Shown here piece by piece: positions 2,255-4,602 of a stretch of DNA of 35,256 bases. The notes under the pieces were generated by a model. The model saw only the letters and a list, made by a program, of their open reading frames with translations, had not been told where the DNA came from and did no database searches. Each line of letters opens with the position of its first letter. Positions within the stretch are counted from its first letter, which is position 1. The stretch spans positions 1-35,256 of the forward strand of contig JAJHRB010000008.1 of the NCBI GenBank assembly GCA_020833025.1, written 5' to 3'. The position numbers and the translations under genes were made by a program. Origin of the DNA: Thermoproteaceae archaeon. Lineage in GTDB: Archaea > Thermoproteota > Thermoprotei > Thermoproteales > Thermoproteaceae.

Positions 2255-2863
2255 GTGCTCTGCGAGTGGCTGACGCGCGGCGCGATGTGCTCGGCGGCCC
2301 ACAGATACCTCGGGCTCCCGCGCGGCACCAGCTGCACCGAGGAGGAGGCGCTCGTGGGCAGGGCGCTGGAGAGGGCCCTGGCGTCGCTGAGGGACGGCCG
2401 GGCGCTGAAGCCGGGCGACGTGCACTCGGCGCTTCTAGTCCTTCTGTCGAAGAGCGGGACTGAGGCGGCGCTGCAGGCCGCCGTGAGGGAGGAGGCGGTC
2501 GGCATTGACTGGGACTACTGCCCGCTCGGCTTCGCGCTCGGGAGGAGGGTGACTGTCTTCGCGGGCTCTCTCGTCGAGAGCGCGGAGGAGCTCTACGAGG
2601 GCTACAGCTGGCTGTTCGAGCGCTTCGGGATGGCCCACGTCTTCGCCAAGGCGGCAGACGATGCCGAGCGCGAGGAGGCGTACCGCAAGTACGGCGCGGA
2701 GGCGGTGATAACGTGCCTGAGGAGGCCCCCGTGGCGCCTGAAGACCTACGTCGTGTCCTGCGACTGGCCGGGCCCGGCGGCCAGGCTTCTCGCCAGGGCC
2801 ATGGGCCTCGAGCTCTACCGCGGGGGCCAGCGGCTGGCCCCCGGCATTTACGTCGTCTCGTAG
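2255..2863 (+). CDS. Hypothetical protein (202 aa)
   Basis: Protein-like 3' part of the 2066..2863 ORF; GTG 2255 sits just after the TATA-like element. Confidence 0.7.
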   Translation: MLCEWLTRGAMCSAAHRYLGLPRGTSCTEEEALVGRALERALASLRDGRALKPGDVHSALLVLLSKSGTEAALQAAVREEAVGIDWDYCPLGFALGRRVTVFAGSLVESAEELYEGYSWLFERFGMAHVFAKAADDAEREEAYRKYGAEAVITCLRRPPWRLKTYVVSCDWPGPAARLLARAMGLELYRGGQRLAPGIYVVS

Positions 2864-3030
2864 TCGCGCGAGAATAGCTCGCCGGGCGGCAGCTTCCCCT
2901 CCGCCACGAGCCTCCCCTTAACTATGTCGAGGGCCGCGCGCAGGCGCCAGTAGAAGTCCGCAAGGTCCTCCCTCCCCGTCTCCCTCCACTCTGCATATAT
3001 CAGCCTGGCTATGTGCTCCAGCTCCCTGAC
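2848..3030 (-). pseudogene. C-terminal piece of the gene interrupted by the IS element
   Basis: VRELEHIARLIYAEWRETGREDLADFYWRL... joins in frame to 4964..4587 when 3031-4586 is removed. Confidence 0.85.
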
Positions 3031-3038
3031 CAGCACGA

Positions 3039-3062
3039 CAAGCCTCGCCCTTCAGGGCGGGG
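3039..3062 (+). repeat. IS left-end guide CAAG plus hairpin CCTCGCCC-TTCA-GGGCGGGG
   Basis: Near copy of the right-end hairpin. Guide CAAG matches target TGAC under the IS608 pairing rule. Confidence 0.85.
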
Positions 3063-3229
3063 TCGCCCCATCTGCGGCGAAAAGCTTATGAGACCCGGCC
3101 TTGCCAGGGCGATCGGTGCCCGGGGCGGTGCCCCCTCCCTCCCCGGATGAGCCGGTGGGGCGATACCCCACTGTTCTCGCCGCCCCGGGCACTGAATCTC
3201 CCAAATCGAAGGGTAAGAGAAAGCGCGCT

Positions 3230-4567
3230 TTGGGGGACGAAAACAAGAGGACTGTTAGGCTTAGGTTGTTGCCCAACGGCTCTCAAGAGAGGAAATTGCG
3301 AAGAATAGCCGATACCGCTGCCAAGCTGTGGAACGAATTGAACCACGCCAGGCTGGTTCAGCATAGGGAGAGTAGTGCGATTGATTTCAAGGGTACAGAG
3401 CATGAGTTCTACCACAGGTATAAGAGTGTGTTGGGTGTGAATGCTGGCCAGGTGATTAACCTAAATAATTGGATGTGGAAATCGTTCTTTGAGTTGTCTA
3501 GGCTGTATAAACAAGGCGAGCTACCGAAATTCATGGGTAAGCCATCGCCACCAGGCTTCTGGAAGGACAGGTTACTGGGCAGGAGGGAGCTGAGAGTCCT
3601 CGTGAGGAATGACAGGTACTACATTGAGCCGATCAACAACGGCGAGGGCTACCTAGTCCTAAAGGACTGGGGTTTGAGGATTAGGTATGCTGGCAGAATC
3701 AAGTGGAGTGGAAAGCAGGGCACGCTAGTGATAAAGTACGAGGGTGGCAGGTGGTTCGCCTATGTGCCAATCACCGTTGGGGAGAAACCCGCCAGATCTA
3801 ACCCGAAAGGCTACGTGAGGGGCATCCACGAGAAAATACAAATTGAGAAGCCTAAAGGCAACAACAAGGCCTTTATCGACGTTGGCTTGAACAACTTGTT
3901 CGCGGTGGCGTTTAGTCATACCAATGCGGCTATCTTGATTAAGGGCTCAACAATTAAGGCCGAGTACTACTGGTGGAAGCGTGAAATCAGGACGTATCAG
4001 GCAATTAGGGATTGGCTCAAACACCGTGGTTTTGAGCTATGGAAGAAGTACCACGCACTCTACATGCACGCAGTTTACAAGAGGAGGGAAAGACTTAGGC
4101 ACTACTATAGGACGGCAGTTAGGTTCCTGACAGAGACACTCCACGAAATGGGCGTTGATGAGGTATTCGTTGGTTACCCATACCTGGTGAGCCAGGACAA
4201 CGGTAATGAGTACAACACGAACATTTGGTGGTACGCTAAGGTAATAAAATGGCTCGGCGAGGTGCTGCAAGAGTACGGAATCAAACTCAACGTGGTGAGC
4301 GAGCACGGAACAAGCAAGCAGTGCTCCATATGCAATGCGGAGCACGAGAACGGTAGGGTTAAGCGTGGACTATATGTATGCCCAGTAACGGGTATAAAAA
4401 TTAACGCCGACATAAACGCAGCAAGAAACATTGCAAGGAGGGTAGGTTACGAAGTACCAATACCAAGGAAGATACTGAGCTACATAGTAACAAGTAACGG
4501 AGTAAAACCAATAACCCCCAAAGAGGGGGTAACGGTCGAGACCCCCACGATGGAAACCCCGCCCTAA
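3230..4567 (+). CDS. tnpB: TnpB RNA-guided endonuclease (RuvC plus Zn ribbon)
   Basis: KRTVRLRLLP N-terminus, RuvC-I FIDVGLNNL, TSKQCSIC, RuvC-III INADINAARNI. The ORF is open from 3101; TTG 3230 is the likelier start but is uncertain. Confidence 0.92.
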   Translation: MGDENKRTVRLRLLPNGSQERKLRRIADTAAKLWNELNHARLVQHRESSAIDFKGTEHEFYHRYKSVLGVNAGQVINLNNWMWKSFFELSRLYKQGELPKFMGKPSPPGFWKDRLLGRRELRVLVRNDRYYIEPINNGEGYLVLKDWGLRIRYAGRIKWSGKQGTLVIKYEGGRWFAYVPITVGEKPARSNPKGYVRGIHEKIQIEKPKGNNKAFIDVGLNNLFAVAFSHTNAAILIKGSTIKAEYYWWKREIRTYQAIRDWLKHRGFELWKKYHALYMHAVYKRRERLRHYYRTAVRFLTETLHEMGVDEVFVGYPYLVSQDNGNEYNTNIWWYAKVIKWLGEVLQEYGIKLNVVSEHGTSKQCSICNAEHENGRVKRGLYVCPVTGIKINADINAARNIARRVGYEVPIPRKILSYIVTSNGVKPITPKEGVTVETPTMETPP

Positions 4568-4602
4568 AGGGCGGGGAGGGGGTCATCTCGGCCGGGCCAA
4601 GC
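4400..4602 (+). ncRNA. Predicted TnpB reRNA/omega RNA: right-end scaffold plus flank-derived guide CTCGGCCGGGCCAAGC (5' boundary approximate)
   Basis: Established TnpB biology: the scaffold overlaps the tnpB 3' end and right end, and the guide is the adjacent flank from 4587. Boundaries are not demonstrable from sequence alone. Confidence 0.55.
4553..4576 (+). repeat. IS right-end guide GAAA plus hairpin CCCCGCCC-TAAA-GGGCGGGG
   Basis: Perfect 8-bp stem. Guide GAAA matches terminal TCAT (4583-4586). Confidence 0.88.

Follow-up and report, generated by a model that had tools for sequence, protein, structure and literature searches.

The 35,256-nucleotide stretch of DNA analysed here (the window; positions 1 to 35,256 of contig JAJHRB010000008.1, assembly GCA_020833025.1, from a Thermoproteaceae archaeon) carries an insertion sequence at positions 3031-4586. 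This is very probably a non-autonomous, tnpB-only (IS1341-type) element of the IS200/IS605 family, which interrupts a minus-strand gene of a ~190-amino-acid family. Its ends are marked by TGAC and TCAT, its guide tetranucleotides follow the rule of IS608, and a TnpA acting in trans and a guide RNA serving TnpB would complete the system. The assembly to which the window belongs, as contig C20, totals 1.56 Mb in 126 contigs and is 93.9% complete; the sequencing runs that contain the window's sequence are labelled as hot-spring metagenomes. An original prediction had described such an element from the window; its observation was confirmed and its interpretation gained support in each testable part.

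Ends of the element and the interrupted gene

The features by which IS200/IS605 elements are recognized are present at both ends of the element. Imperfect palindromes lie subterminally on the same strand and are kept in more than 40 relatives, and the left hairpin is kept in all related copies. The insertion lies 3' of a specific tetranucleotide without target-site duplication, and a 4-nt guide 5' of each hairpin pairs with the corresponding cleavage site. Re-reading of the sequence placed TGAC, CAAG, GAAA and TCAT exactly where the original prediction had put them. The prediction had also taken the ends to be exact to the base, and comparison of the family gives the same ends, 3031 and 4586; for the right end, a filled/empty pair of a sister copy agrees. 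The GC content of the element is 51.9%, compared with 62.6% for the genome.

The sister copy lies on contig C11 of the same genome. It is partial, shares 80% nucleotide identity with the element and ends ...GGGGGTCAT|CCGCGC. Contig C27 carries the corresponding empty allele, ...CTTCATGAC|CCGCGC, in which TGAC directly precedes the flank (TGAC|CCGCGC; C27:7720-7724 against C11:1899, minus strand). Over 840 bp, C27 and the flank of the C11 copy are 98.6% identical, and the similarity sets in with the first base after TCAT. The two contigs are a filled/empty allele pair, which fixes the right boundary and shows TGAC as the target; the left junction of the C11 copy was found on none of the contigs. 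The pair points to strain heterogeneity within the bin and to a fairly recent insertion or excision. The pair also shows that, within one population, a guide derived from the flank of the C11 copy would have a matching empty allele next to TGAC.

Removal of the element restores the reading frame of the interrupted gene, as had been proposed. On the minus strand, 126 codons run from 4964 to 4587 and, once 3031-4586 is taken out, continue in frame from 3030 to 2848. The rejoined protein of 186 amino acids is colinear with eight homologues of 183-198 amino acids, one of them a paralogue encoded on contig C50 of the genome itself, and aligns without a gap across residues 126|127 (...PAE|VRELEH... 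versus ...PGDVRELQR... in a homologue). Because C stands at both 3031 and 4587, excision of 3031-4586 or of 3032-4587 yields an identical product. Among alternative boundaries this +1 shift alone gives the same excision product, and it is contradicted by the family comparison.

The interrupted gene belongs to a multi-copy family of proteins of ~190 amino acids. Their N-terminus is hydrophobic, they share the conserved motifs YYTEE and TGREDL, and no Pfam match was found for them. Paralogues are present in the same genome (C50:27123-27485 and C47:12124-12993), and related archaea carry several copies per genome.

Covariation of guides and cleavage sites

IS608 (ISHp608) of Helicobacter pylori is the mechanistic model of the IS200/IS605 family. 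At its right end, C-3 pairs with guide base 1 and T-4 with guide base 2, T-4 also bonds with A-2, and the purines A-10 and G-9, directly 3' of the hairpin, form base triplets with the C-3 and T-4 pairs (He et al. 2011, PMC3201880). The element in the window shares with IS608 the subterminal hairpins, the 4-nt guides and the lack of target duplication. It also shares the pairing scheme, in which guide bases 1, 2 and 4 pair with site bases 2, 1 and 4, respectively, and the T and A at site positions 1 and 3. The geometry of the right end is likewise that of IS608: the last base of the hairpin is 4576, the next two, at 4577-4578, are A and G, and the right cleavage site, at the end of TCAT, lies ten nucleotides from the hairpin foot. 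Unlike IS608, the element lacks tnpA, has an archaeal host, uses TGAC and TCAT rather than TTAC and TCAA, and has its left site 12 nt rather than 19 nt from the hairpin.

A match to the pairing rule at either end alone has a chance probability of ~1/64, and covariation across copies is stronger evidence than such single-end matches. For about 40 distinct related copies, the four nucleotides before the left hairpin were compared with the tetranucleotides 4-17 nt upstream. The guide CAAG was accompanied by a TGAC flank in 14 of 17 copies and by TTAC or TGAT in none, while the guide AAAG went with TTAC in 12 of 15 copies and never with TGAC. Likewise, five of the six copies with guide CAAA had TGAT (none had TGAC or TTAC), and the single CAAT copy had TGAA and no site of the other classes. 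Across the ~40 copies, cross-matches between a left-guide class and the sites of other classes numbered zero. Further copies in a sister-family genome, G039, were preceded by TGAC in six of six cases, and the base 5' of TGAC varied freely among copies when inspected by eye.

At the right end, GAAA is paired with TCAT in 43 distinct related copies, and GAAC occurs with TCAG in TnpA-bearing elements. The TCAG-type right ends of the genome itself were left unscored, as the foot of their hairpin is ambiguous. The original prediction had relied on the pairing rule and had proposed that other copies should follow TGAC. The rule agrees with the published IS608 data (PMC3201880), and TGAC precedes other copies on contigs C19 and C32 of the same genome, in Caldivirga, in metagenome-assembled genomes (MAGs) of Desulfurococcales and on metagenome contigs. 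Judged from this comparison of related copies, positions 1 and 4 of the guide covary with the site, which bears out the IS608 guide/cleavage rule.

The copy on C19 (C19:39223-39465, minus strand) is a 243-bp miniature, composed of the TGAC flank, the left hairpin, the leader described below and the terminal 91 nt of the element. Its TATA-like box is good (GTTTATAAAA), and its leader is fused directly to the predicted guide-RNA scaffold; the copy could be a stand-alone guide-RNA gene. The copy on C32 (C32:22886-23606), also flanked by TGAC, is decayed and measures 721 bp. No second copy of the flanks of the window's own insertion was found in the assembly.

Contigs of four metagenome runs were aligned to the locus. 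The same insertion, with both junctions, was recovered from a hot-spring metagenome run of another study. A variant of the element with 96% identity occurs in other contexts in three runs, where the matches begin at 3027 and stop at 4585/4586. Moreover, many miniature derivatives were found on metagenome contigs, in which ~3063-3190 is joined to ~4496-4512 through several independent deletions.

The genome also contains a second IS200/IS605-type family, with TTAC flanks, AAAG left guides and GGTCAG right ends, whose copies are mostly short and without an open reading frame (ORF); examples are C19:3925-4268 (minus strand), C47:8899, C89:25207, C114:1401 and C120:3539.

Table 1. Coordinates of the element, its parts and the interrupted gene in the window
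Feature	Position	Strand	Remarks
Insertion sequence	3031-4586	+	1556 bp; IS200/IS605 family, tnpB-only (IS1341-type); no target duplication
Left flanking tetranucleotide TGAC	3027-3030	+	host DNA, outside the element
Left guide tetranucleotide CAAG	3039-3042	+	directly 5' of left hairpin
Left subterminal hairpin	3043-3062	+	stems 3043-3050/3055-3062 (8 bp, one T.G pair); TTCA loop 3051-3054
Conserved structured 5' leader	3116-3192	+	supported by folding and compensatory changes
tnpB ORF	3230-4567	+	445 codons from TTG 3230; frame open back to 3101; stop TAA 4565-4567
RuvC-I Asp codon	3878-3880	+	
Gly codon at canonical RuvC-II Glu position	4172-4174	+	
Alternative Glu codon	4301-4303	+	
RuvC-III Asp codon	4409-4411	+	
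Predicted omega/right-end element RNA (reRNA; guide-RNA) scaffold	4477-4586	+	overlaps tnpB 3' end and right end
Right guide tetranucleotide GAAA	4553-4556	+	directly 5' of right hairpin
Right subterminal hairpin	4557-4576	+	perfect 8-bp stem; TAAA loop
Hairpin foot to right end	4577-4586	+	10 nt; A-10 and G-9 at 4577-4578; terminal TCAT 4583-4586
Predicted 16-nt guide (host flank)	4587-4602	+	would spell the empty allele together with TGAC; by analogy with TnpB literature
Interrupted host gene, N-terminal 126 codons	4587-4964	-	
Interrupted host gene, C-terminal 60 codons and stop	2848-3030	-	

TnpB, its predicted guide RNA and the 5' leader

The product of the ORF had been identified as TnpB, with which both its Pfam domains and its predicted fold agree. 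Pfam searches gave matches above the cut-offs to PF01385 (OrfB_IS605, 56.8 bits), PF07282 (Cas12f1-like TNB, 56.3 bits) and PF12323 (HTH_OrfB, 22.7 bits). An AlphaFold model (mean predicted local distance difference test score 79.6) was matched by Foldseek with a probability of 1.00 to Cas12f, ISDra2 TnpB, ISFba1 TnpB and Fanzor2. The protein thus falls in the same fold family as ISDra2 TnpB and Sulfolobus islandicus TnpB7, with ~15-18% structure-based identity to the solved ISDra2 and ISFba1 proteins.

The RuvC-I Asp, a Gly-Tyr-Pro at RuvC-II, a Glu 43 residues downstream and the RuvC-III Asp are invariant in 16 intact homologues. In the model, strand 309-317 terminates in the Gly and the following strand, 352-358, in the alternative Glu, just before a Thr-Ser...Cys-x-x-Cys motif. 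In the RuvC-II-rearranged (RIIr) TnpB clades, several of which are almost exclusively archaeal, an alternative Glu in beta-5 replaces the beta-4 Glu (Altae-Tran et al. 2023, PMC10691335). As modelled, the TnpB in the window fits this type, with which it shares the change from Glu to Gly at RuvC-II and the invariant Glu on the following beta strand. It is unlike these clades in its zinc ribbon (4322-4411, plus strand), in which Cys-x-x-Cys is followed three residues on by an invariant His and then by Cys-x-x-Thr as the second zinc pair; this arrangement is kept in the 16 homologues.

The ratio of nonsynonymous to synonymous substitution rates (dN/dS) is 0.04-0.06 against the Caldivirga copies and 0.15 against the C11 copy, which argues that the protein was kept functional. 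The gene is intact and, by these ratios, has been under strong purifying selection. The closest TnpBs (74-82% identity) are found in Caldivirga assemblies and the next closest (~50-55%) in Desulfurococcales MAGs. A covariance model of the leader found it in none of 24 genomes of the same family and 39 times in G039. Since the closest TnpBs are those of Caldivirga and the leader shows this distribution, the element probably came in by horizontal transfer from a lineage like Caldivirga.

The segment 4477-4598 gives a full-length match to the Rfam family HgcC (RF00062) at 25.9 bits and E 0.002, below the gathering threshold of 50 bits, so that it resembles HgcC and membership is not called. In the right hairpin and the GAGG-GGUCA tail, the segment barely differs from the HgcC model. 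Sense-overlapping RNAs (sotRNAs) have been described for IS1341-type tnpB genes, at whose 3' end they lie, and HgcC contains a tetraloop like that of the right end (Gomes-Filho et al. 2015, PMC4615843). The right-end region has a folding z-score of -5.1; covariation in the predicted 3' guide-RNA region is almost absent, because the sequence there hardly varies and in part encodes protein. In characterised TnpBs, the transposon-associated motif (TAM) is the TnpA target and the guide is the DNA of the right flank (PMC11043419). By analogy, the scaffold and the guide CTCGGCCGGGCCAAGC would constitute the guide RNA of this TnpB. The genome contains no other TGAC-flanked match to the predicted guide, and its near-matches all lack TGAC. 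The stop codon of tnpB falls in the loop of the right hairpin, so that the coding sequence shares this stretch with the end of the transposon and with the predicted guide-RNA scaffold.

Upstream, a structured leader sits between a TATA-like box and the start of tnpB. It consists of a 15-bp closing stem (3116-3130 with 3178-3192), a GGATGAGCC motif at 3145-3153 and an inner hairpin at 3154-3171, and its folding z-score is -2.9. A combined alignment of two subfamilies recovered the inner hairpin alone, as MAFFT misaligned the outer stem, and the subfamilies were analysed separately. Among the 11 Thermoproteales-type copies 24 pairs are predicted, 8 of them with compensatory changes; for the 19 Desulfurococcales copies the corresponding numbers are 22 and 12. 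In the pair tables of both subfamilies G.U pairs far outnumber A.C pairs, which places the structure on the sense strand, whether it exists as RNA or as DNA of the top strand.

In addition to the window, the genome has leader copies at C19:39304-39405 (minus strand) and C32:22955-23042 (plus strand). Some miniature derivatives keep the leader and others are without it; it is thus dispensable for recognition of the ends. No Rfam family matched the leader, and a literature search returned no description of one like it. A K-turn or C/D box was considered for its GGAUGAG motif and dropped, because the opposite strand is without GA. The leader is most likely a regulatory element in the 5' untranslated region. 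Both the leader and the guide-proximal module of the guide RNA have an outer stem that encloses a GAUG-purine motif and a GC-rich hairpin. It is conceivable, but rather doubtful, that the leader is a new regulatory RNA, possibly a TnpB-binding decoy that mimics this module; in the TnpB-only elements of hyperthermophilic archaea, such an RNA could control TnpB translation or guide-RNA production.

Mobility, alternative explanations and significance

Mobilization by a Y1 HUH TnpA, a further hallmark of the IS200/IS605 family, has no counterpart in the element itself, and it is this absence that defines the non-autonomous IS1341 group. The original prediction had accordingly called for a TnpA in trans. 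None is present in the element or the assembly, and TnpA occurs in 5 of 14 genomes of the sister family. One of these genomes, G030, carries an autonomous tnpA-tnpB element (L110:300-2080, G030:C1) with TGAC, 11 nt, and then CAAG and the hairpin; its left end is 96% identical to that of the element in the window over 25 nt, and its right end is of the TCAG type. This element shows that left- and right-end types can combine. More importantly, it shows that a compatible TnpA exists in the same order, which makes mobilization in trans plausible.

We infer that TGAC at 3027-3030 is both the left cleavage and target site of TnpA and the TAM of TnpB. With a Y1 TnpA provided in trans, cuts would fall after TGAC and after TCAT on the top strand, and the element would move by peel-and-paste transposition. 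RNA from ~4477-4586, together with ~16 nt of flank, would become the guide RNA, with which TnpB may cut TGAC-flanked, guide-matching DNA through the RuvC-I Asp, the relocated Glu and the RuvC-III Asp. The guide-matching DNA would be the empty allele, and its cutting would favour retention of the element. Activity of TnpB, identity of the TAM with the TnpA target, guide-RNA production and homing in a host without a resident TnpA are all proposed here on these parallels.

Several observations weigh against this account. The Y1 TnpA domain (PF01797) was detected neither in the element, nor in its genome at 93.9% completeness, nor in the 24 same-family genomes. It is likewise absent from G039, with its 39 leader copies, and from the genomes of the relatives L028 (Caldivirga MU80), L033 and L047; the genome that holds L043 contains one TnpA fragment. 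With no TnpA found, excision and homing are currently impossible from resident genes. CGAC replaces TGAC in two relatives (L029 and L063), and several Caldivirga right guides read TAAA, AAAA or TTAA, so that guide position 1 is not always Watson-Crick paired. Alignment to solved Cas12f chains shows that the canonical RuvC-II Glu is replaced by Gly (VGYP), and the classical Asp-Glu-Asp triad is thus missing; for the RIIr clades, PMC10691335 (2023) rests on structural models and leaves the consequences to experiment. The start of tnpB is uncertain, as the variant with 96% identity has TCG in place of TTG at 3230-3232 (3231 T>C). The TATA-like box is degenerate relative to those of the C19 and L030 copies, and the HgcC score is sub-threshold. 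Finally, no 3030>4587 joint, which would mark the empty allele, was found in the four runs, a result that is uninformative because contigs drop rare variants.

The copy is probably immobile at present, since the assembled genome lacks TnpA. It might also be an inert fossil: a correctly delimited insertion sequence whose TnpB and guide RNA are no longer expressed or active, at a locus where nothing takes place any more. We regard this as possible but unlikely. The lack of TnpA in the genome and in same-family genomes is compatible with it, as are the degenerate TATA-like box, the loss of a second leader hairpin that is present in the C19 and Caldivirga copies, the uncertain start codon and the state of the other copies in the genome, which are decayed (C32) or miniature (C19). 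Archaea in general are rich in tnpB genes and show little recent mobility (PMC10691335). However, no stop interrupts the 445-codon frame, every residue that is invariant in the family is preserved, the 96%-identical variant and the same insertion recur in several hot-spring metagenomes, and the filled and empty alleles of the sister copy, at 98.6% flank identity, indicate fairly recent movement in the lineage.

Strong purifying selection in carrier lineages without TnpA, together with a non-canonical active site, might instead suggest that TnpB was domesticated for a host function, such as an RNA-guided regulator or a toxin; exapted TnpBs, including catalytically rearranged archaeal ones, have been described (PMC10691335). 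This is very unlikely here, because tnpB lies within intact transposon ends and interrupts a host gene, the element is multicopy with miniature derivatives and has no conserved gene neighbour, and the Asp, the alternative Glu and the second Asp are all kept. Movement of the family without a Y1 TnpA, via TnpB itself or an unrecognised enzyme, is more improbable still: G039 has its many leader-bearing copies and no Y1 transposase match, and four genomes checked lack TnpA save for one fragment, but the guide/site covariation and the IS608-like right end are a Y1 HUH signature, autonomous tnpA-tnpB elements with the same end types occur in the same order, the assemblies are incomplete, and the 74-82% identity of the Caldivirga copies speaks for an old rather than a recent spread.

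Taken together, the preferred explanation remains a non-autonomous tnpB-only element that a TnpA in trans would mobilize, and as such it is an ordinary, cleanly delimited member of a well-known archaeal class. Like other archaeal IS1341 elements, it has tnpB as its sole gene, an RNA-like structured region over the tnpB 3' end and the right end (PMC4615843), and miniature derivatives with fused left and right ends; it differs from the IS1341/HgcC systems in that its HgcC match is sub-threshold and in that its family has, in addition, a 5' leader of conserved structure. TnpBs from thermophilic archaea have been characterised before, and one works as an editor at 30-75 °C (PMC11043419). TnpB7 belongs to the IS605 group, in which tnpA and tnpB occur together, unlike the tnpB-only element in the window, for which the TGAC TAM is a prediction.

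The finding is of moderate interest, which lies in the combination of a rearranged active site with a predicted TAM and guide, in the clear covariation that backs the guide/cleavage rule in archaeal elements, in persistence without TnpA and in a leader structure that has no Rfam match. The element is a clean example of ends, target motif and guide that can be read straight from the sequence, and the tabulated covariation carries the IS608 rule for guides and cleavage sites over to many archaeal TnpB-only elements. It also adds to the long-standing puzzle of TnpB-only elements that persist, and occasionally move, where no TnpA is found. With its predicted TGAC TAM and rearranged RuvC-II, this TnpB of a hot-spring archaeon may serve as a test case for the function of a relocated Glu at high temperature.

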